Below are positions 8,924-55,689 of a stretch of 64,000 nucleotides of DNA, in pieces. The notes under the pieces are model-generated. The model saw only the letters and a program-made list of their open reading frames with translations, had not been told where the DNA came from and searched no databases. The DNA is taken from the NCBI GenBank assembly GCA_947085525.1, contig CAMTWU010000003.1, positions 25,866 to 89,865 of the forward strand. The letters are read 5' to 3'. Position numbers and translations under genes: made by a program. How positions within the stretch are numbered: position 1 is the first letter of the stretch; every line of letters begins with the position of its first letter. Origin of the DNA: an uncultured Candidatus Saccharibacteria bacterium (GTDB lineage: Bacteria > Patescibacteriota > Saccharimonadia > Saccharimonadales > Saccharimonadaceae).

Positions 8924-8997
8924 TGGCTAGGGTGGAGGGATTCGAACCCCCGATCACGGGACCAGAACCCGTTGCCTTACCACTTGGCCACACCCTA
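8924..8997 (-). tRNA. tRNA-Gln (anticodon CUG), CCA encoded
   Basis: The minus strand reads TAGGGTG TG GCCAAGTGGTAAGGC A ACGGG TTCTGGT CCCGT GATC GGGGG TTCGAAT CCCTC CACCCTA G CCA. The cloverleaf is complete. It has the U1-A72 pair and G73 typical of bacterial tRNA-Gln. Confidence 0.9.
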
Positions 8998-33621: not shown

Positions 33622-35631
33622 ATGTCAAAATTTCTACGTGATTTATTAGATGCCGAGGAACCACTCTTTGGCTTGAGTCTACGTGATCTAGAAAAAGCCA
33701 GCGGTAAACAAGGTGTTGATGCTAGGTTGATTGCTGATATTACCCAAGAGACTCATCAAGCTATCCGTGAGCTAGGGTTAGATCACAAAAATACCACGGG
33801 CAAAGAATTTTACCAAGCATTGATGGCGCGCGTAGCAAGCGATAACGAACGGGTGACTAAAATTGTTGGCGGAACAGATAGTGATGACGTGCGCCAAATG
33901 GTTCCGCTGCTAGTAGCTGCAGCTAACAAAGTAAAATTCAATCGCAAAGTTTTTGTACTAAAACACGACAAAGCCAAAGATTTGCTGCGACAAATGCCAC
34001 CGAAAAAACTGATGCAACGGCTAGGCTACGATAATATCGAAGATTTATTTGGAGGTGAGAATTTTTCCGAGCTCTATACTGCCCTGCGGTTTTCCGAAGG
34101 CGCAGATTGGCTAAATGAATATAATGAGCTGTTCAAGACTGTCGCGGCTGATGATTACGAAGAGCGTGATATCGAAATTGTTGTGATGGATCATGACAAA
34201 TATGTCGATCTGGCCGAACATTTTGTTGAGAAAAAGCTACATAACGTGACCCATACCAAAGAGCTGGGCGTAATAGTTGTTGTTCCGATGCACGCAAAGC
34301 GCATCAAAGGTCTGACACTCAAAACATTGCCACTACTCTTTCATTACCTGAACGAAGTGAAACTGTATTCGACTTTCTTTAAGCTAAAGTCCAAAACAGC
34401 CAAGCAATTTGGCGAGACTGTGATGGAAACATTGATAGCCGATCCTGCAAAGGCCGCCTCGATCTCGGGCAGGCACGTACACTGGCGAGTTATTCAGCGG
34501 TATTTTGGCAAACTAAAGGACGAGAGTCACCTAGAAGCATTTGAACCACATGTTCAACCCGAGGATCTACATTGGCGCCGTGCCGAGGATCTACTGTATC
34601 AGATAGATCCTGAAATGAAATTTTACAAAAGCCGCGACTGGGTTGGTATGATGTACGATGGCAGTCCCGTGACACTCAATTTTGTCGATATCGCCCTCGG
34701 TTATTCAAATGATATTAGCTACGAAGATCGTTATGTGTATCATTTCCGTGAGAGCTTGTGGAACGAAATATTTGCCCGTTATATGGGTATGCCTAACCTG
34801 AGAGAGCAAGTGCTGAATCAATTAGATAATGATATGATTGCACCCGAAAAGCTCGGTACAGGTAAAAAAAAACGAGCTAAGTCTGCAGAGTCGGAAGCTG
34901 CACCCTACTGCCCAACGGCGTTGATCGAACAAAACAAGCTGAATCATTTGCTGGTTCGCGAAAAGCTAGTCGATGCAGCCGCTGGTAAATTGATAGGTGT
35001 TATAGACGAGTTCGAAAAAGCTTTTGAAGTACTAGGTAAATACCCTAGGACGGTGACTGTATTTGGATCGGCTAGGTTACCTCAAAATCATCCAGCTTGC
35101 AAAGCCGCTTATGAGCTAACCAAGAAAATTGCCCAGGAAGATTATGCGATTGTCACAGGCGGCGGCCACGGCATCATGGAAGCCGCGAATCATGCTGCCT
35201 ATGATATTGGTACTGGATCTGTCGGCCTTAATATCGAATTGCCGACCGAGCAAAGTCTCAACAAATATACGACCGATCATTACACGTTCGAACATTTCTT
35301 TAGCCGCAAGGTCGCATTGACTTTTGACGCTAGCGGATACGTATTTTGCGCAGGAGGTTTCGGGACACTAGATGAGTTATTTGAGATAACTACCCTAGCA
35401 CAAACTGGCATCATACCTCGTGCGCCAATCATTCTATATGGCAGTGACTTTTGGAATCCACTAGCTGACTACATACAACACACACTGAATGAAAAATTTG
35501 GAACTATTGGTCCTGATGATCCCAAGCTGCATATTATTACTGACGATCCATTAGAGATTATTGCTTATATCGAGGCATATGAAAGCGGTCGACCAAGCTT
35601 TGCAAACCACTCGAGCGTACATCCGCTATAA
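33622..35631 (+). CDS. Fusion protein: unknown N-terminal region of about 450 aa plus a C-terminal LOG/TIGR00730 (nucleotide N-ribohydrolase) domain
   Basis: The C-terminal 200 aa carries VTVFGSARL...TGGGHGIMEAAN...GGFGTLDELFE, which are the LOG-family motifs. The N-terminal part has no motif I recognise. Confidence 0.75.
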   Translation: MSKFLRDLLDAEEPLFGLSLRDLEKASGKQGVDARLIADITQETHQAIRELGLDHKNTTGKEFYQALMARVASDNERVTKIVGGTDSDDVRQMVPLLVAAANKVKFNRKVFVLKHDKAKDLLRQMPPKKLMQRLGYDNIEDLFGGENFSELYTALRFSEGADWLNEYNELFKTVAADDYEERDIEIVVMDHDKYVDLAEHFVEKKLHNVTHTKELGVIVVVPMHAKRIKGLTLKTLPLLFHYLNEVKLYSTFFKLKSKTAKQFGETVMETLIADPAKAASISGRHVHWRVIQRYFGKLKDESHLEAFEPHVQPEDLHWRRAEDLLYQIDPEMKFYKSRDWVGMMYDGSPVTLNFVDIALGYSNDISYEDRYVYHFRESLWNEIFARYMGMPNLREQVLNQLDNDMIAPEKLGTGKKKRAKSAESEAAPYCPTALIEQNKLNHLLVREKLVDAAAGKLIGVIDEFEKAFEVLGKYPRTVTVFGSARLPQNHPACKAAYELTKKIAQEDYAIVTGGGHGIMEAANHAAYDIGTGSVGLNIELPTEQSLNKYTTDHYTFEHFFSRKVALTFDASGYVFCAGGFGTLDELFEITTLAQTGIIPRAPIILYGSDFWNPLADYIQHTLNEKFGTIGPDDPKLHIITDDPLEIIAYIEAYESGRPSFANHSSVHPL

Positions 35632-35638
35632 TAGTAGG

Positions 35639-37603
35639 ATGACAAAGTTCAAGTTAGTGACAAAATATCAGCCAACAGGTGATCAGCCTGCTGCTATTGC
35701 TCAATTGATTGATGGACTAGAAAAGGGCGAAAAGGAACAAACACTGCTGGGTGTAACTGGTAGTGGCAAGACGTTTACTATGGCAAATATTATTGCCAAT
35801 CGTCAGACGCCGACATTGGTGCTAGCACATAACAAAACGTTGGCTGCACAGCTGTATAGTGAGTTCAAATCATTTTTCCCTGAAAATGAAGTTCATTATT
35901 TTGTTAGCTACTTTGACTACTACCAACCCGAAGCCTATATAGCCAGCCGCGATGTCTATATCGAAAAAGACAGCAAGATCAACGAAGAGATCGATAAGTT
36001 GCGGCATGCAGCTACTGCTGCACTGCTAACTGGGCGTGATGTGATCATTGTTGCTAGTGTCAGCTGTATTTACGGCATCGGCTCACCAGAAGCCTACAAT
36101 CAAATGTCAGTCACTGTTAAAAAGAGCGAAAGACGTTCGCTAGATAAATTCGTTCGACATTTAACAGATATCCAATATCAACGAAATGATATTGATTTTT
36201 CTCGCGGCACATTTCGTCAACGTGGTGATATCATCGACGTGTTTCCTGCGGGCGGTGACAACGCCTATCGCATAGAGTTCTTTGGTGACGAAGTCGAAAA
36301 TATCAGTGAGATCAATCCACTAACTGGTGAAATTTTGCGCAGGCCCAGCGAAGTACATATCTTCCCGAGCTCGCACTACGTCACGCCAAAGGAAAAGCTA
36401 TCTCATGCTTTGACAGGTATTAAAAAAGAGTTTGAACAGCAGGTGCAACACTTTGAAAAAGCCGGTAAATTCCTAGAAGCCCAACGCCTGACGCAGCGTA
36501 CAAAATACGATATCGAAATGCTAGAAGAAACAGGGTTTGTCAAAGGTATCGAAAACTACAGTCGCTATCTAACCGATCGCGAGCCGGGCGCACAGCCGGC
36601 AACATTGATAGACTATTTCCCTGATGATTGGCTGTTGATGGTCGACGAATCACACATGAGCCTGCCACAGGTACGTGGTATGTATAATGGCGATCGAGCT
36701 CGCAAAGAGACTTTGGTCGAACACGGTTTTCGTATGCCTAGCGCACTCGACAACCGTCCACTACGTTTTGACGAGTTCAATAATCATATCAATCAAGCAA
36801 TCTATGTATCGGCGACCCCGAGCGACTATGAGCTAGAGCATTCACCTCCTCCTGCGCAGCAGGTTATTCGTCCAACTGGACTAGTCGACCCAGTGATCGA
36901 CATTCGTTCCTCTGAAGGCCAAGTTGATGATTTGATTGCCGAGATCCGTGAGCGTATAGAAAAACACCAACGAGTTCTGGTAACAACCCTAACCAAACGT
37001 ATGGCCGAAGATCTGACAGAGCATTTACAAGAACTCGATATCAAAACTGCCTATATTCATAGTGACATTGACACGTTGGAGCGTGGGGATATACTGAAAT
37101 CACTACGACTAGGCGAGTTTGATGTGCTGGTCGGTATTAACTTGCTGCGTGAAGGTTTGGACTTGCCAGAGGTTAGTTTGGTAGCAATCATCGACGCCGA
37201 CAAAGAAGGTTTCCTGCGTAGCGCCAGTGCGCTGATACAAACAATCGGTCGTGCAGCCAGGCATCTAGATGGAAAAGTCATCATGTATGCCGATCACGAA
37301 ACCGATTCTATGAAAAAAGCGATCGGCGAAACCAACCGCCGCCGCAAGATCCAAGAAGACTACAATACCGAGCACAACATCACACCCGAGAGTATCGCCA
37401 AAGAAATTAGCGAAGGCTTGCGGGCGATCATACCAGAAAAAGACAAAGGTCCAACGCTGAAACTAAGCAAGATACCAAAAGATGAATACCCACACCTATT
37501 AAAAGAACTAACAGGTCAAATGGAACTCGCCAGCGCCAACTTAGAATTTGAAAAAGCCGCTGAACTACGTGATTCGATAGAGGAAATAAAAGCAAAAATG
37601 TAA
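35639..37603 (+). CDS. uvrB: Excinuclease ABC subunit B
   Basis: MTKFKLVTKYQPTGDQPAAI...GVTGSGKTFT...C-terminal UVR motif. The start is moved to the ATG at 35639, because the upstream extension overlaps the previous gene. Confidence 0.95.
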   Translation: MTKFKLVTKYQPTGDQPAAIAQLIDGLEKGEKEQTLLGVTGSGKTFTMANIIANRQTPTLVLAHNKTLAAQLYSEFKSFFPENEVHYFVSYFDYYQPEAYIASRDVYIEKDSKINEEIDKLRHAATAALLTGRDVIIVASVSCIYGIGSPEAYNQMSVTVKKSERRSLDKFVRHLTDIQYQRNDIDFSRGTFRQRGDIIDVFPAGGDNAYRIEFFGDEVENISEINPLTGEILRRPSEVHIFPSSHYVTPKEKLSHALTGIKKEFEQQVQHFEKAGKFLEAQRLTQRTKYDIEMLEETGFVKGIENYSRYLTDREPGAQPATLIDYFPDDWLLMVDESHMSLPQVRGMYNGDRARKETLVEHGFRMPSALDNRPLRFDEFNNHINQAIYVSATPSDYELEHSPPPAQQVIRPTGLVDPVIDIRSSEGQVDDLIAEIRERIEKHQRVLVTTLTKRMAEDLTEHLQELDIKTAYIHSDIDTLERGDILKSLRLGEFDVLVGINLLREGLDLPEVSLVAIIDADKEGFLRSASALIQTIGRAARHLDGKVIMYADHETDSMKKAIGETNRRRKIQEDYNTEHNITPESIAKEISEGLRAIIPEKDKGPTLKLSKIPKDEYPHLLKELTGQMELASANLEFEKAAELRDSIEEIKAKM

Positions 37604-37667: not shown

Positions 37668-38087
37668 TTACGGACCACACCACCGTATGAACTCCTTGCG
37701 CTGCGTGAACTCGCTGGCATCTGTGATCGGAGTTTTGTACTTGACCCCAGCGATGTTCGCGAGCCACTTGCCGTCGTCACGGTTAAGGGTGACGCGACAG
37801 CCAACAGGGTAACCCTGCAAGCTGACCCCAGCCTCTCTGCTGTAAATCATTACAACACCCCGAAAGCCAAGCGCCTGAAGAGCTGCCTTGTCTTTGTCAG
37901 ATTGCTTCTGGTTGCCAGCCTCCTCTGCCGCTATGGCGAATGCCAGTGCAGCTATAAAAGCCAGAGCACCAAGATTGCCAAGCCACTTTGCTCGTTGTTT
38001 GTTCTTCTCAGGATCAGTTCGCAAGCAAAAAACAATGAGCACAATTGCGACTAACACAAAAAAGAGCGCCACATACCACATGTTCAT
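37668..38087 (-). CDS. Hypothetical two-TM membrane protein in a locally GC-elevated segment
   Basis: The start is set at ATGAACATG behind AAGGTGGTG. It has two hydrophobic helices and then a soluble tail of about 70 aa. The antisense 145-aa ORF is rejected. Confidence 0.5.
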   Translation of the reverse strand: MNMWYVALFFVLVAIVLIVFCLRTDPEKNKQRAKWLGNLGALAFIAALAFAIAAEEAGNQKQSDKDKAALQALGFRGVVMIYSREAGVSLQGYPVGCRVTLNRDDGKWLANIAGVKYKTPITDASEFTQRKEFIRWCGP

Positions 38088-38204
38088 CCTCACACCACCT
38101 TTTCGATTGATTTCAAAAATATGAAGATTAGTTTTTATTATGAAAAAATAAATAGTATTTGTCAAGTAGTTACACCTCGGTAATATTTGGTATAATGATC
38201 ATCA

Positions 38205-52784: not shown

Positions 52785-53312
52785 ATGAGTTTTGCATTAA
52801 TCGACAAAGTCAACAAAGCGCAGATGAAGCCGTCTGTTGTTGATGCTCGTAGTGGTGACACAGTCAAAGTCCACCAAAAGATTAAAGAAGGTAACAAAGA
52901 ACGTATCCAGATATTTGAAGGCGTTGTTATCCGTACTGATCGCAAAAACAGCCACACTAGCCGTATCACTGTACGCAAAATCGCCAGTGGTGTTGGTGTC
53001 GAAAAAAGCTTTCTACTACACAGCCCATTAGTCGAAAAAGTCGAAATCGTTCGTCGTTCTAAAGTTCGCCGTAACTACCTCAGCTATTTGCGAGCTCGTA
53101 GCGGTAAGAGTGCTCGCCTAAAAGGTACTGATTTCGACCGCTTGGCAGTTAATGATGTACATGATCCTAAAGCCGAAGCTGAAGCCTTACGTTTGAAAGA
53201 AGAAGCTGCCAAGGCAGCAGCCGAAAAAGCCGAAGCAAAAGCCGCCGAGGAAGCTGAGCTTGCTGCAAAACAAGCAGAAGTCGAAGCTCGTCACAACGAG
53301 ACCAAAGAATAA
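52785..53312 (+). CDS. rplS: 50S ribosomal protein L19 with a C-terminal Ala/Glu/Lys-rich extension of about 60 aa
   Basis: The core GDTVKVHQKIKEGNKERIQIFEGVVI...RKIASGVGVEKSFLLHSP.VEKVEIVRR.KVRR is canonical bL19. Residues from about 115 to 175 are low-complexity (AEAEALRLKEEAAKAAAEKAEAKAAEEAELAAKQAE). Confidence 0.9.
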   Translation: MSFALIDKVNKAQMKPSVVDARSGDTVKVHQKIKEGNKERIQIFEGVVIRTDRKNSHTSRITVRKIASGVGVEKSFLLHSPLVEKVEIVRRSKVRRNYLSYLRARSGKSARLKGTDFDRLAVNDVHDPKAEAEALRLKEEAAKAAAEKAEAKAAEEAELAAKQAEVEARHNETKE

Positions 53313-53330
53313 AGCTCCTACACAAGAAAT

Positions 53331-53358
53331 AAAACCACTCTGTTCTGGGGTGGTTTTT
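53331..53358 (+). terminator. Rho-independent terminator of rplS
   Basis: AAAACCAC-tctgttctgg-GTGGTTTTT. Confidence 0.75.
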
Positions 53359-53380
53359 AGTTTAAAAAAAAAGAAGACCT

Positions 53381-53415
53381 CCCGGGTCGACACCAAATGA
53401 ATGGTGCCGCCCGGG
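53381..53415 (-). terminator. Hairpin plus U-run terminating the 54-codon minus-strand ORF
   Basis: CCCGGG..CACCA / TGGTG..CCCGGG, an imperfect stem of about 13 bp. On the minus strand it is followed by aggtcttc and then a T9 run (plus-strand A run 53364-53372). Confidence 0.5.
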
Positions 53416-53502
53416 TTAGGTCCGTCTTTGTGATCCAACTGCGCCGGAAAAACCGACTAGCCCTCCCGAGCTAGGATCTACAAAGGTGCGCGTCGCTGAG
53501 GA

Positions 53503-53667
53503 TCAGTCCGGGTTGAAGCCGGCGATGCCGCCGGTGGCGGAGTTGGCCTTGGTCGCGTTGCGCGCGTGCGTCGAGGAGGTCGTGCTGATCTGCATTTCGT
53601 TCTCAATTTCGGAGATGTTTCCGAGGGGTGTGCCGCGAGCCGCGGCGAGGGAATGCAGGTGCTTCAT
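53503..53667 (-). CDS. 54-aa ORF with extreme GC3 bias, unknown function (below the cutoff of the ORF track)
   Basis: MKHLHSLAAARGTPLGNISEIENEMQISTTSSTHARNATKANSATGGIAGFNPD. 47 of 54 codons end in G or C. The promoter is near-consensus and there is a downstream hairpin. The SD is weak. Confidence 0.45.
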   Translation of the reverse strand: MKHLHSLAAARGTPLGNISEIENEMQISTTSSTHARNATKANSATGGIAGFNPD

Positions 53668-53732
53668 ATAGATGAACCAACTTTCTCTACTCGTCTTTCA
53701 TTTCCACCAGGTGGTTACCTGATTTACATAGC

Positions 53733-53761
53733 ATAGTATCATATATTAAAAAACTTGTCAA
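53733..53761 (-). promoter_or_regulatory. Near-consensus sigma70 promoter driving the 54-codon ORF
   Basis: On the minus strand: TTGACA (53761-53756), a 17-nt spacer, then TACTAT (53738-53733). Confidence 0.6.
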
Positions 53762-53801
53762 CACTTTTGTCAAACTATTTTGAAACATAAAAATAGGCAA
53801 G

Positions 53802-53848
53802 AAAAAACCTTCGTGACGAGTGGTGCTTTTTAGGGCACCACTCGTCAC
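53802..53848 (-). terminator. Strong intrinsic terminator (perfect 14-bp stem) for a minus-strand transcript
   Basis: GTGACGAGTGGTGC (53813-53826), an 8-nt loop, then GCACCACTCGTCAC (53835-53848). On the minus strand it is followed by gaagg and TTTTTT (plus-strand A6 at 53802-53807). Confidence 0.7.
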
Positions 53849-54121
53849 AGATAACCAGGAGGGAGAAATCAGGTACCCGGAAAGTTACAGGAACTAGGCG
53901 GTCGTGTGATTTCAATTTTTACTGCAGGTACTGCATGCTGCCCTTTTGGGGACTCGTCATCAGTGCGTCCTTGGTTTACTACCCCAATTGAATGCGATGA
54001 ACCATCCAGGGTTCGAACTGCTATCGGGTAGGACTACTGCGCCTTCGTATAAGTTTTTTCTTGCCAGTGTTTGTATTGGTACTTCGAGACCTCTGCATCC
54101 ATGCATGTTTCTCGATTACTC
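53802..54121 (-). ncRNA. Candidate unclassified non-coding transcript of about 320 nt
   Basis: It is bounded by the promoter at 54156-54128 and the 14-bp-stem terminator. Internal hairpins include TCGAGA..TCTCGA, CTACCC..GGGTAG, GAACC..GGTTC and TGCAG-tac-CTGCA. The only ORFs are at most 49 codons and lack an SD. Confidence 0.35.
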
Positions 54122-54127
54122 ACTATC

Positions 54128-54156
54128 AGTATATTCCTCACGCTTACGCTTGTAAA
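54128..54156 (-). promoter_or_regulatory. Sigma70-type promoter of the candidate ncRNA
   Basis: On the minus strand: TTTACA (54156-54151), a 17-nt spacer, then TATACT (54133-54128). Confidence 0.55.
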
Positions 54157-54172
54157 CACTTTTTTGTATGAA

Positions 54173-54199
54173 ATACAAAAAACTACCATTTAGGTAGTT
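54173..54199 (-). terminator. AT-rich hairpin plus U-run ending the rightmost minus-strand unit
   Basis: On the minus strand: AACTACC-taaat-GGTAGTT, then TTTTT. A second hairpin, TTTTTTGTAT-ttc-ATACAAAAAA, abuts it. Confidence 0.5.
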
Positions 54200-54391
54200 T
54201 GAAAGATGTTTCTATAAAAATGAGACAAGGAAATTGTGCTGGTGGACGGTGCGTAAAGCGCCGCCCACCAGCTGCAACATGGATGTCGTCGACACAGGCG
54301 TGGTGTGTTCCTGGTCTCGACGCAATGAGTACGAACAGACGAGTGACAGTCCGTGTCATTGCTTCCATTTGTGCATCGTGTAGTAAGACTA

Positions 54392-54427
54392 CGCCACATG
54401 AGAACTATCCATAGCTCTCATGTGGCG
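54392..54427. repeat. Perfect 12-bp inverted repeat with a 12-nt loop
   Basis: CGCCACATGAGA-actatccatagc-TCTCATGTGGCG. No U-run follows on either strand. Confidence 0.9.
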
Positions 54428-54762
54428 AGTTGACCAGAGGTAGCAACTTCGCTTGTTATTCGTCCTTCTCGGCAGGAACGAACAACGCCTCTGGCACACT
54501 TGTGGGTGAGTGGCTAGCGACCGCCGAAGCGAGAAACGCATTCTTGCGCGGCGCCGCCTCCTCCGCCACGACGGTTCATGCCGCTGCCGCCCTGACAGTG
54601 ACCACGAAAGCCACCGCCATTGCGTCACTTGACCTTTTCGCCAGTCTGGCGATTTGTTCCGCGAATCCCTACCATCGCATCTCCTTGTCTCGATTGAAAA
54701 CGGATGTTCTCAATTATCTTTTATATTAATACGCCTAGGCTCAATAGTCTATAGTAGACGAC

Positions 54763-55689
54763 ATGATAGTTGGAATTGACGAAGTAGGACGGGGTGCATG
54801 GGCAGGGCCACTAGTCGTTGGGGCGGTTGTACTGGGCGGTGCACAGATCGATGGTTTGACCGATAGCAAAAAGCTAACCGCAAAGCGTCGCCGAGAACTG
54901 GCGAGTGAAATCAAAGAAAAAGCTATGGCGATTGGTTTGGGTTGGGTATCAGCTGAGACAATTGACAAGATTGGTTTATCCGAAGCACTAAAAATGGCGA
55001 CCAGACTAGCGGTCAAAGAAATAAATGTTGAGTACGACGAGATCATTATAGATGGCACAATCAAACTACTGGATGATGATAGAGTTACGACAATGAAGCA
55101 AGCTGATTTGTTAGTTCCCAGTGTGTCAGCCGCCAGTATAGTTGCCAAAGTTGCTCGTGACTATTATATGAGTGAAGTTATTCACGCACAACATCCACAG
55201 TACAGCTTTGATCGACATGTTGGCTACGGTACGGCATTGCACTCCACGGCACTGACTGAACATGGGCCGATAGAACTACATCGGCTGAGCTTTACACCCG
55301 TCAAAAAAGCGCTAGGACTCGAAATATCACAACCAGTAAAGGTTGATAAAGTCGTTGAGACCGCAGGTCGTCAGGCAGAGGCTGTAGCTGCACGGTATCT
55401 TGCTAATCAAGGATATGAAATCTTGGCACAAAACTGGCGTACCAAATTATGCGAAATCGATATTGTGGCGCAAAAAGACCAGGTAGTACATTTGGTCGAA
55501 GTAAAATATCGCAAAAAGCAGACTCAAGGTGATGGCTTGCAAGCAATTACTCCTAAAAAATTACGACAAATGAAATTCGCTGCACGTATGTGGCAACATT
55601 GGCACGGATTCACGGGCGGCATGCAGCTGAGCGTCATATCAATGAGCGGCCAACCACCTCAGGTTGATGAATTTTTGGAAAGTATTTAG
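54763..55689 (+). CDS. rnhB: Fusion of ribonuclease HII and a YraN (UPF0102) endonuclease-like domain
   Basis: The N-terminal 190 aa or so is MIVGIDEVGRGAWAGPLVVGAVVL...DSKKL...ASIVAKV.RD (RNase HII). The C-terminal 110 aa or so is GRQAEAVAARYLANQGYEILAQNWR.KLCEIDIVAQK...VHLVEVKYR (YraN). Confidence 0.85.
   Translation: MIVGIDEVGRGAWAGPLVVGAVVLGGAQIDGLTDSKKLTAKRRRELASEIKEKAMAIGLGWVSAETIDKIGLSEALKMATRLAVKEINVEYDEIIIDGTIKLLDDDRVTTMKQADLLVPSVSAASIVAKVARDYYMSEVIHAQHPQYSFDRHVGYGTALHSTALTEHGPIELHRLSFTPVKKALGLEISQPVKVDKVVETAGRQAEAVAARYLANQGYEILAQNWRTKLCEIDIVAQKDQVVHLVEVKYRKKQTQGDGLQAITPKKLRQMKFAARMWQHWHGFTGGMQLSVISMSGQPPQVDEFLESI

Follow-up and report, generated by a model that had tools for sequence, protein, structure and literature searches.

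This study concerns the gap between rplS and rnhB in a 64-kb stretch of DNA (64,000 nt; hereafter the window, to which all positions refer) from a member of the Saccharibacteria. The rplS gene (52785-53312) and an rnhB-yraN fusion gene (54763-55689), both on the plus strand, are separated by 1,450 nt, the longest gap poor in open reading frames (ORFs) in the window; the remaining gaps between long ORFs do not exceed approximately 360 nt. The largest ORF inside the gap has 99 aa (54430-54729, plus strand), and every ORF there has an antisense twin. The sequence in the gap, here called the island, carries three successive units on the minus strand, numbered 3, 2, and 1 from the rnhB side. On the sequence evidence given below, the island is probably a clade-specific cluster of three independently transcribed, very small genes: two peptide genes, one of them broken in this genome, and one folded RNA. 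An earlier sequence-only reading of the window had described an ORF-poor stretch of 1.4 kb with ORFs mirrored on the antisense strand, AT-rich spacers alternating with G/C blocks, and three minus-strand promoter-to-terminator units. This anatomy proved correct, the third promoter being weaker than the other two.

The mean GC content of the window is 43.7%. The spacers at 53680-53810, 54100-54235, and 54690-54762 have 31-34% GC. They alternate with GC-rich blocks, among them 53521-53580, for which the earlier count of 44 G/C in 60 nt was reproduced exactly, and 54500-54660, which had been called similar and has 101 G/C in 161 nt (63%). Three stretches in the 64 kb reach at least 58% GC in 150-nt windows, and two of these lie within the island. 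Both GC-rich blocks of the island correspond to very small minus-strand ORFs: one of 54 aa running from 53667 to 53503, which accounts for the block at 53480-53650, and a Gly/Arg-rich one of 53 codons running from 54675 to 54514 and interrupted by a TGA, which accounts for the block at approximately 54500-54660. The earlier reading lacked these two ORFs because both are shorter than the 60-aa limit of its ORF tracking. The remainder of the island is structured RNA with 47-53% GC. The third stretch reaching 58% GC (37671-37890) lies in the 3' half of a 165-aa minus-strand ORF (37668-38165) located just downstream of a uvrB-like gene (35561-37603).

Promoter and terminator scans covered 53000-55000 on both strands, and promoters were scored against a 12-position consensus. 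On the minus strand, TTTACA-17-TATACT (54156-54128) and TTGACA-17-TACTAT (53761-53733), the latter with an extended -10 TG, each match 10 of the 12 positions. The third promoter, TAGACT-17-TAATAT (54751-54723), matches 8 of 12 and lies under the scan threshold. In the relatives inspected, a -10-like box follows TAGACT at 17 nt in those with unit 3 (L004, L161, and L163) and is absent in those without it (L001 and L167). Terminator-like sites in the scanned region numbered 8, versus 2.1 ± 1.6 in shuffled sequences. Those on the minus strand of the island were hairpins at 54200-54180, 53849-53812, and 53474-53457; an extra hairpin with a U run at 53415-53364 (minus strand), outside the scan list, came from direct reading of the sequence. 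All three units appear to share one layout, in which a strong promoter of the sigma-70 type and a 5' stem-loop precede the body, and a long G+C hairpin and a U-rich tail follow it. They resemble small RNA genes in general, whether trans-acting or dual-function, being intergenic, having their own predicted promoter and intrinsic terminator, being kept in relatives, and having a conserved secondary structure with covariation.

We collected 160 loci with the rplS-rnhB pair. In most Saccharibacteria, the junction measures 60-100 nt. Many lineages have a junction of approximately 550 nt with a plus-strand ORF for a membrane protein of approximately 170 aa, unrelated to the island, and other junctions measure 0.5-3.2 kb and differ in content, on either strand. 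Across Saccharibacteria (L001-L160), the rplS-rnhB junction is an insertion hotspot. The closest relatives, which were reached via genome contigs and exact-protein look-ups, are the only ones with an island of the same units. Their RplS is 91-98% identical to that of the window, and they form one small clade of approximately nine lineages. L166, with 86% identical RplS and the same upstream synteny, has a junction of only 70 nt. The earlier description of the island as an insert thus holds relative to most Saccharibacteria, but not the Actinomycetota-type donor that had been proposed with it (see below). Several contigs of relatives come from groundwater samples. The lengths of the island in the relatives are as follows.

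L004: 1,233 nt
L184: 1,228 nt
L161 and L162: 1,373 nt
L163: 1,541 nt
L167-L172: 848 nt
L183: 1,105 nt
L187: 1,716 nt
L001 and L173-L180: 500 nt

Unit content also varies among the lineages. L001 has unit 2 alone, L167 has units 2 and 1, and L163 and L187 have four units, the fourth being a second copy of unit 1. This copy is located on the minus strand at island positions 770-1075 in L163 and 1010-1290 in L187 and has its own promoter and terminator; its ORF begins MKNT(A/V)PVPASRGSTA... and has 28-36 aa. The units lack the universal presence in relatives expected of a housekeeping RNA: the L001 lineage has neither unit 1 nor unit 3, the L167 lineage has no unit 3, and most Saccharibacteria carry none of the units, either at the rplS-rnhB junction or in the flanks retrieved. 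With nhmmer profiles of three and then nine sequences, no further copies of unit 2 were found outside the islands of the clade, in the window and in 189 Saccharibacteria loci. In the 64 kb, the conserved promoter word occurs at two island promoters only.

Between lineages, blastn aligns little beyond the promoter and terminator spacers. The four-fold sites of rnhB differ by 55-75% between most lineages and are saturated; therefore, whatever still aligns in the island is under selection. L004 and L184, a closer pair, have islands that are 86% identical over their whole length, compared with a 47% difference at the rnhB four-fold sites. L161/L162/L181/L182 and L167/L172 are nearly identical, and a strain-level comparison of synonymous changes was uninformative for them.

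Unit 1, the unit nearest to rplS, extends from approximately 53726 to 53364 and is read as the mRNA of a small protein. Its features are the following (GC3, G+C content at third codon positions; UTR, untranslated region).

53733-53761, minus strand: promoter TTGACA-17-TACTAT with an extended -10 TG, from the scan; conserved in L004, L161, L163, L167, L183, and L187
53706-53723, minus strand: 5' stem-loop AUCAGGUAACCACCUGGU, from the fold; equivalent UCAGG...CCUGA hairpins in L004, L167, and L163
53503-53667, minus strand: small ORF of 54 aa, MKHLHSLAAARGTPLGNISEIENEMQISTTSSTHARNATKANSATGGIAGFNPD, from periodicity, GC3, and homologues
53364-53474, minus strand: 3' UTR with two hairpin-plus-U-run elements (53474-53447 and 53415-53364), from the scan and the sequence

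The GC-rich block of unit 1 has a pronounced three-base periodicity, and the GC fraction at one codon position is 0.83-0.97. Homologues of the ORF, with 28-59 aa, occupy the same position in the units of L161, L163 (two copies), L167, L183, and L187 (two copies), and AAGGAG, GGAGG, AAGGUG, or AAGAGG precedes the ORF at 5-12 nt in 7 of the 8 unit 1 copies. Members of this family share the N-terminal motif M(K)...P(L/I)AAARG(S/T), many have Gly-Gly near the C-terminus, and their middle parts are almost completely different. The ORFs of L161 and L187 share the ending IGGLHREC(G/N)SS. In the stretch coding for LAAARGTPLG, the window and L161 differ only at three synonymous third positions. The 3' UTR is approximately 79% identical to that of L183 and is better conserved than the ORF body. 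Unit 1 is predicted to encode a hydrophilic protein of 54 aa that belongs to an orphan family and for which no fold is predicted with confidence. AlphaFold2 with a two-sequence alignment gave a mean predicted local distance difference test score (pLDDT) of 55, a predicted template modeling score (pTM) of 0.11, and no secondary structure, a result that fits disorder but is uninformative. The fold of unit 1 in the window has z = -4.1 relative to shuffled sequences. At L004 (590-953) and L184, unit 1 keeps its promoter and 5' hairpin and has no family ORF; the L004 unit 1 is among the most strongly folded units (z = -10.9), its folded stretch including the rplS terminator.

Unit 3, at the opposite end of the island, runs from approximately 54716 to 54174 (approximately 540 nt) and is predicted to be exceptionally stable. 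Its features are the following (MFE, minimum free energy).

54723-54751, minus strand: promoter TAGACT-17-TAATAT, from reading of the sequence; back-to-back with the rnhB promoter
54693-54714, minus strand: 5' stem-loop AUUGAGAACAUCCGUUUUCAAU, from the MFE fold; equivalent hairpins visible in L183 and L187
54679-54691, minus strand: 5' strand of the closing helix, GAGACAAGGAGAU, holding the Shine-Dalgarno sequence AAGGAG (54686-54681), from inverted repeat, fold, and duplex search
54514-54675, minus strand: small ORF with ATG at 54675, 16 codons, TGA at 54627-54625, and the frame continuing to TAG at 54516-54514
54235-54513, minus strand: structured body with a CCAGAGG/CCUCUGG helix, a 17-bp hairpin (54427-54392), and a 15-bp hairpin (54272-54238)
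54222-54234, minus strand: 3' strand of the closing helix (anti-Shine-Dalgarno), AUUUCCUUGUCUC, then a U run (54221-54213), from inverted repeat, fold, and duplex search
54174-54200, minus strand: second hairpin and U run after unit 3, AAACUACCUAAAUGGUAGUUUUUU, from the terminator scan; conserved in L161, L163, L183, and L187

The MFE of unit 3 is -243 kcal/mol, compared with -176 ± 6.5 kcal/mol for shuffled sequences (z = -10.3), and the unit 3 sequences of relatives have z = -7.8 to -8.9. A closing helix of 13 bp joins 54691-54679 to 54234-54222 and is predicted to bury the Shine-Dalgarno sequence; its 3' strand is placed right after the 15-bp hairpin and right before the U run. The same pairing is found in L161, L163, L183, and L187, where the inner ends of the helix change complementarily. 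The helices of the body are common to the window, L187, and L163, and 18 of their pairs are maintained by changes on both sides.

The second GC-rich block is, as read from the sequence, a tiny Gly/Arg-rich gene that is broken in this genome. Its ATG lies 5 nt past the Shine-Dalgarno sequence, and of its 53 codons, those after the TGA are Gly/Arg-rich. The window frame aligns across the TGA with an intact ORF of 66 aa in L187, which begins MIGIRGSNRCGGRGS... (44% identity over 48 aa, pairwise E = 7e-11). Both ORFs stop just ahead of a common element, CACCCAC(A/C)AGUGUGCCAGAGG; in L163, a deletion has removed the ORF, and the Shine-Dalgarno sequence leads directly into this element. The in-frame TGA (54625-54627) may have arisen by a recent nonsense mutation, may be read through, or may be an error of sequencing. 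Reading UGA as glycine (code 25) was ruled out, as TGA is an ordinary stop here and ends 5 of the 35 long ORFs. The earlier reading had also considered that relatives might hold an ordinary protein gene that is broken here. This is borne out in miniature by the intact L187 ORF, but genes at other junctions do not match: tBLASTn with ORFs of at least 90 aa from other Saccharibacteria rplS-rnhB gaps gave chance-level matches only, and a wrecked ordinary gene was rejected.

Two further elements were seen in and after unit 3. The post-ORF element CACCCACAAGUGUG (54495-54508) repeats the ACAAG of the Shine-Dalgarno strand, and RNAalifold pairs it with the 3' CUUGU (54222-54234) once the 5' strand is omitted; in this model, it may provide an alternative pairing or a switch. 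Between the unit 3 terminator and the -35 box of unit 2 (54160-54182) lies a perfect 10-bp A/T palindrome, UUUUUUGUAU-UUC-AUACAAAAAA, and similar palindromes are present in L161 and L163.

Unit 2, in the middle of the island, has no ORF common to the lineages and is predicted to be a non-coding RNA. Its promoter and transcript are the following.

54128-54156, minus strand: promoter TTTACA-17-TATACT with an upstream A tract, from the promoter scan
53787-54121, minus strand: unit 2 RNA of approximately 335 nt, from folding and covariation

The promoter, including the spacer AAAAC(A/G)TAAGG, is nearly invariant across eight relatives. The RNA has a 5' hairpin (54114-54085), a C/U-rich single strand GAUUUCUCCCUCCUGG (53870-53855), and a terminal hairpin of 14-15 bp (53849-53812). 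A closing helix of 15 bp, formed by GGCAAGAAAAAACUU (54065-54051) and AAGGUUUUUUCUUGCC (53811-53796), encloses the body and the terminal hairpin. The z-score of the fold is -4.5 for the window and ranges from -6.8 to -9.2 in relatives; the latter range also covers units 2 and 3 together in the five relatives analyzed. Covariation in the helix is seen in the following combinations of 5' and 3' strands.

5' GGCAAG with 3' CUUGCC
5' GACAAG with 3' CUUGUC
5' GAUAAG with 3' CUUAUC
5' GACGAG with 3' CUCGUC
5' GACGAU with 3' AUCGUC

In an alignment of the closing helix and terminal hairpin from nine lineages, 90.6% of the cells are paired, compared with 43-54% for slid partners, and 16 pairs change on both sides; none of 500 shuffles scored as high. 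This alignment was assembled from the two helix regions, joined by a linker, and is biased towards the tested structure. MAFFT and RNAalifold on seven full-length unit 2 sequences recovered the terminal hairpin alone, because the bodies are too diverged to align, and subgroup and helix-only alignments were used instead. The subgroup alignments contain a covarying internal helix, AAAUCA...UGAUUU, followed by the GAUUUCUCCCUCCUGG single strand.

Closing helices are present in every lineage tested, and their sequences mark unit 2 as a paralogue of unit 3. The 3' strands with their tails, UUUCUUGCCUAUUUUUAU and UUCCUUGUCUCAUUUUUAU, clearly resemble each other. Replacing GGAG by AAAA in the unit 3 strand of L163, GACAAGGAGAAGCUU, gives the 5' strand of unit 2 in L004, GACAAGAAAAAGCUU. 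The GACAAGGAGA of unit 3 corresponds to GGCAAGAAAAAA in unit 2, with the 3' strand altered to match. Pairing of unit 2 in trans with the 5' regions of units 1 and 3 gave RNAduplex energies no better than those of shuffled sequences, with inconsistent placement, and these duplex predictions gave no target for the C/U-rich stretch. Complementarity over 13 nt between 53878-53866 and 53725-53713 of the window is not conserved.

Searches of known families returned no counterpart. At gathering thresholds, the sole Rfam match in the whole window was a tRNA (8927-8997). Rfam cmscan at E ≤ 10 gave chance-level matches only for 53250-54850, and at E ≤ 5, it gave none for the loci of five relatives; ARAGORN found nothing in the island. 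RNase P RNA, transfer-messenger RNA (tmRNA), signal recognition particle (SRP) RNA, and 6S RNA gave no match with Rfam models, nor did tmRNA with ARAGORN, in agreement with the earlier statement that RNase P RNA, tmRNA, and SRP RNA are missing here. The Rfam models of OLE, ROOL, GOLLD, HEARO, and raiA did not match even at permissive E-values. For the peptides, there was no family match in Pfam or NCBIfam (both at E ≤ 10), in PHROGs, or in PDB sequences. A word-indexed search of 5.8 billion clustered proteins with the 54-aa ORF returned nothing, as did phmmer against 1.84 billion representatives at E ≤ 1e-3. The unit 1 family profile retrieved only P0140, the L161 orthologue, from the 5.8 billion clusters. 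A DNA search of phage and plasmid records gave one match of E = 0.01 in an AT-rich spacer and nothing else. The unit 2 promoter pattern had no match in viral contigs, and a 17-mer coding for LAAARG had 81 matches there, all in high-GC phages (mean GC 0.68) and none in a small MK-led family ORF. A full-text literature search found no relevant paper on small RNAs or small proteins of Saccharibacteria and other Patescibacteria. The units thus appear to be new families of a known kind, namely lineage-restricted orphan genes with no catalogued match.

The codon usage of unit 1 is unusual for this genome, as the following GC3 values indicate.

Long ORFs of the window: 0.39 ± 0.05
rplS: 0.37
rnhB: 0.39
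Highest 54-codon window in the long ORFs: 0.63
Unit 1 ORF of the window: 0.87
Unit 1 ORFs of L161, L163 (two copies), and L167: 0.81-0.92
Unit 1 ORF of L164: 0.69
Unit 1 ORFs of L187 and L183: approximately 0.83 and 0.66, respectively (hand counts)
Unit 3 ORF of the window: 0.57

Only the unit 1 ORF looks foreign in codon usage; the unit 3 ORF, whose G+C comes from GGN and CGN codons, and the RNA bodies do not deviate. Since neutral sites are saturated between the lineages and GC3 is high in most of them, the wobble G/C is being maintained and is not the fading trace of one import. Selection of wobble G/C for base pairing was considered and is unsupported, as the pairing probability in the unit 1 ORFs is equal at all three codon positions. 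No donor homologue was found outside the clade in protein libraries, phage and plasmid records, and viral contigs, a search in which actinobacterial genomes were not covered as DNA and small ORFs are under-represented; therefore, the donor cannot be named.

We considered whether all three units could be non-coding regulatory or scaffold RNAs, with small ORFs that are incidental or vestigial. What every lineage keeps belongs to the RNA level, namely the promoters, the hairpins at the 5' end, the closing helices and terminal hairpins, and strongly negative z-scores. Unit 1 of L004 and L184 and unit 3 of L163 have no ORF; in the window, a stop codon interrupts the unit 3 ORF, and the unit 1 ORF has no Shine-Dalgarno sequence and a body that is less conserved than the 3' UTR. 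However, three-base periodicity and a GC3 of 0.8-0.9 in five ORFs are hard to obtain without a reading frame. A canonical Shine-Dalgarno sequence stands before nearly all unit 1 copies, the N-terminal motif is maintained (the window and L161 differ there by synonymous changes alone), the C-terminal ending is kept between L161 and L187, and the unit 3 ORFs of the window and L187 align significantly. We therefore regard this explanation as unlikely. The body of the unit 1 ORF, if not all GC-rich parts, could stem from a high-GC donor (e.g., an actinobacterial host), with native promoters and perhaps repeated replacement of the ORF body; such an origin would not be exclusive of a cluster of small genes. 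The GC3 of unit 1, which reflects mostly C-ending codons and exceeds both the genome value and the window maximum, speaks for it, as do the absence of the island from most Saccharibacteria, the almost wholly different ORF bodies between conserved flanks, and the lack of preferential pairing at wobble positions, which leaves an RNA-structure account of GC3 unsupported. The failure to find a homologue in the protein, phage/plasmid, and viral collections counts weakly against import. Moreover, the foreign-looking signature covers only approximately 165 nt, and the ORFs share their start, Shine-Dalgarno sequence, N-terminal motif, transcription unit, and locus despite saturated divergence, which argues for vertical descent. 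The high-GC insert from an Actinomycetota-type donor is thus unsupported in the form proposed earlier, and we consider the broader import explanation rather improbable.

The remaining alternatives assign a more specialized function to the island. In a type I toxin-antitoxin-like system, the self-silenced mRNA of a toxin would come from unit 3, and possibly also from unit 1, and unit 2 would act as an RNA antitoxin derived from it. The predicted long-distance helix that buries the Shine-Dalgarno sequence of unit 3, the tandem paralogy of the units, the C/U-rich, anti-Shine-Dalgarno-like stretch of unit 2 (53870-53855), and the repeated loss or inactivation of ORFs, as expected of toxic genes, all fit such a system. 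The peptides, however, are hydrophilic and rich in Gly, Arg, Ala, and Ser, without a hydrophobic helix; no antisense promoter or overlapping antisense gene was found, the only candidate within the units being a weak plus-strand match (9 of 12 positions, 53767-53794); the predicted duplexes between unit 2 and the other two units do not surpass those of shuffled sequences; and unit 2 stands alone in the L001 lineage. This makes a toxin-antitoxin function very unlikely. Even less probable is a precursor of a ribosomally made, modified or exported peptide, such as a bacteriocin or signal, with a conserved leader and a hypervariable core. The conserved N-terminal motif followed by hypervariable sequence, the tandem copies (four units in L163 and L187), the Gly-Gly near the C-terminus in many copies, and the richness in Gly, Ser, and Thr recall such precursors, but the conserved motif spans only approximately seven residues (positions 7-14), patterns of Cys, Ser, and Thr are not conserved, and no precursor family in Pfam or NCBIfam matched. 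Beside the island, in the window and in relatives, there is no modifying enzyme, C39-peptidase transporter, or immunity gene; the neighbors are genes for a malic enzyme and a DinB-like polymerase, together with rplS and rnhB. Finally, the maintained high GC3 could mean that the locus acts at the interface with a high-GC host, with RNAs or peptides delivered and used there or ORF bodies repeatedly exchanged with the host. We hold this to be highly improbable; if true, the island would be an episymbiont effector locus and not a housekeeping one.

A cluster of two peptide genes and one folded RNA remains the explanation that we consider probable, and several observations weigh against it. Promoters, terminators, and translation are all in silico calls, and the promoter of unit 3 matches the consensus poorly (8 of 12). 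The covariation comes from approximately nine related lineages and from a self-assembled, structure-leaning alignment, and little of it is contributed by the unit 3 closing helix, whose core is invariant. The obvious RNA-level explanation of the high GC3, pairing of wobble positions, found no support. In the window, the unit 1 ORF has no recognizable Shine-Dalgarno sequence and the unit 3 ORF is broken, so that peptide output here may be low or nil. The absence of the family ORF from unit 1 of L004 and L184 and of the ORF from unit 3 of L163 means that the peptides are dispensable in some lineages.

We propose the following scheme for this cluster. The three promoters and their terminators would be used in the cell, and the unit 1 ORF would be translated. 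The 5' hairpin and the closing helix between the 5' and 3' parts, which would tie down the U-rich 3' end, may make the RNAs long-lived and nuclease-resistant. In the coding versions of unit 3, ribosomes would have access only before the 3' end is transcribed or after the helix opens. Unit 2 would be a former mRNA, a paralogue of unit 3 that lost its Shine-Dalgarno sequence and ORF and became a purely non-coding RNA of approximately 335 nt. Since ORFs have been lost repeatedly while the folds stay, the RNAs themselves, and not the peptides alone, may be the selected products.

The units can be compared with several known systems. Dual-function small RNAs include RNAIII of Staphylococcus aureus, which encodes delta-haemolysin, SR1/SR1P of Bacillus subtilis, and SgrS/SgrT of Escherichia coli. 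Like these, the island units have their own promoter and terminator, are several hundred nt long and highly structured, have a large folded domain downstream of a short 5'-proximal ORF, and contain C/U-rich single strands that could pair with Shine-Dalgarno sequences; the ORF is dispensable in some relatives. In contrast, they have no sequence or Rfam-model similarity to these RNAs, the duplex predictions gave no target pairing, and they are tandem paralogues with a 5'-3' closing helix. The hok and aapA1 mRNAs (hok/Sok and the aapA1/IsoA1 system of Helicobacter) bury their Shine-Dalgarno sequences by a long-distance helix between the 5' and 3' ends. The units share with them a Shine-Dalgarno region predicted to pair beside the 3' terminator, which would silence the short ORF, multiple paralogous copies, and frequent ORF decay. 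They differ in that the island peptides are hydrophilic and not membrane-active, no antisense RNA gene is present, and unit 2 retains the helix without an ORF or Shine-Dalgarno sequence.

The island also resembles the loci of OLE, ROOL, GOLLD, raiA, and HEARO RNAs in being a GC-enriched, ORF-poor intergenic stretch in a lower-GC genome with strongly negative folding z-scores and covarying helices. However, it gives no model match at E ≤ 10, its taxonomic range is very narrow, and its GC excess comes partly from small ORFs and not from stems. The KGG-repeat stress proteins YciG and GsiB (Pfam PF10685) are small, glycine-rich, and hydrophilic. The island peptides are likewise short and hydrophilic, contain much Gly, Arg, Ser, and Gln, and have RGG- and GGG-type motifs and no confident fold (pLDDT 55), but this likeness is compositional only, and Pfam and NCBIfam at E ≤ 10 give neither a KGG match nor one to another family.

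The downstream gene adjoins the unit 3 promoter. It encodes 308 aa, with RNase HII fused to a UPF0102/YraN-like domain (PF02021), and this fusion is present in all Saccharibacteria loci for which gene tables came back. Its promoter is as follows.

54726-54755, plus strand: rnhB promoter, from the promoter scan and the sequence; the -10 box TATAGT ends 7 nt before the ATG at 54763

The CTATAGT at rnhB is conserved in all relatives, including those without unit 3, and the short distance from the -10 box to the ATG suggests that the rnhB mRNA is probably leaderless. On the other side of the island, RplS has a C-terminal tail of approximately 47 aa rich in Ala, Glu, and Lys (residues 129-175; 53169-53309) beyond the conserved L19 domain, and tails of comparable length are found in relatives across the phylum.

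Saccharibacteria and other Patescibacteria have small, tightly packed genomes in which small RNAs and small proteins are almost uncharted. The island adds lineage-restricted orphan genes to their unknown gene content, a modest but real gain that overturns nothing by itself. The locus yields three testable candidates: a covarying RNA of approximately 335 nt, a very stable RNA of approximately 540 nt that would hide a ribosome-binding site, and an orphan family of proteins with 28-59 aa. The high GC3 that persists in a tiny gene of a low-GC3 genome, if it stems from interaction with a high-GC host, would bear on the dealings between episymbiont and host. Within one clade, coding units appear to become non-coding with the fold kept, which would provide a natural series for studying how mRNAs turn into regulatory RNAs.

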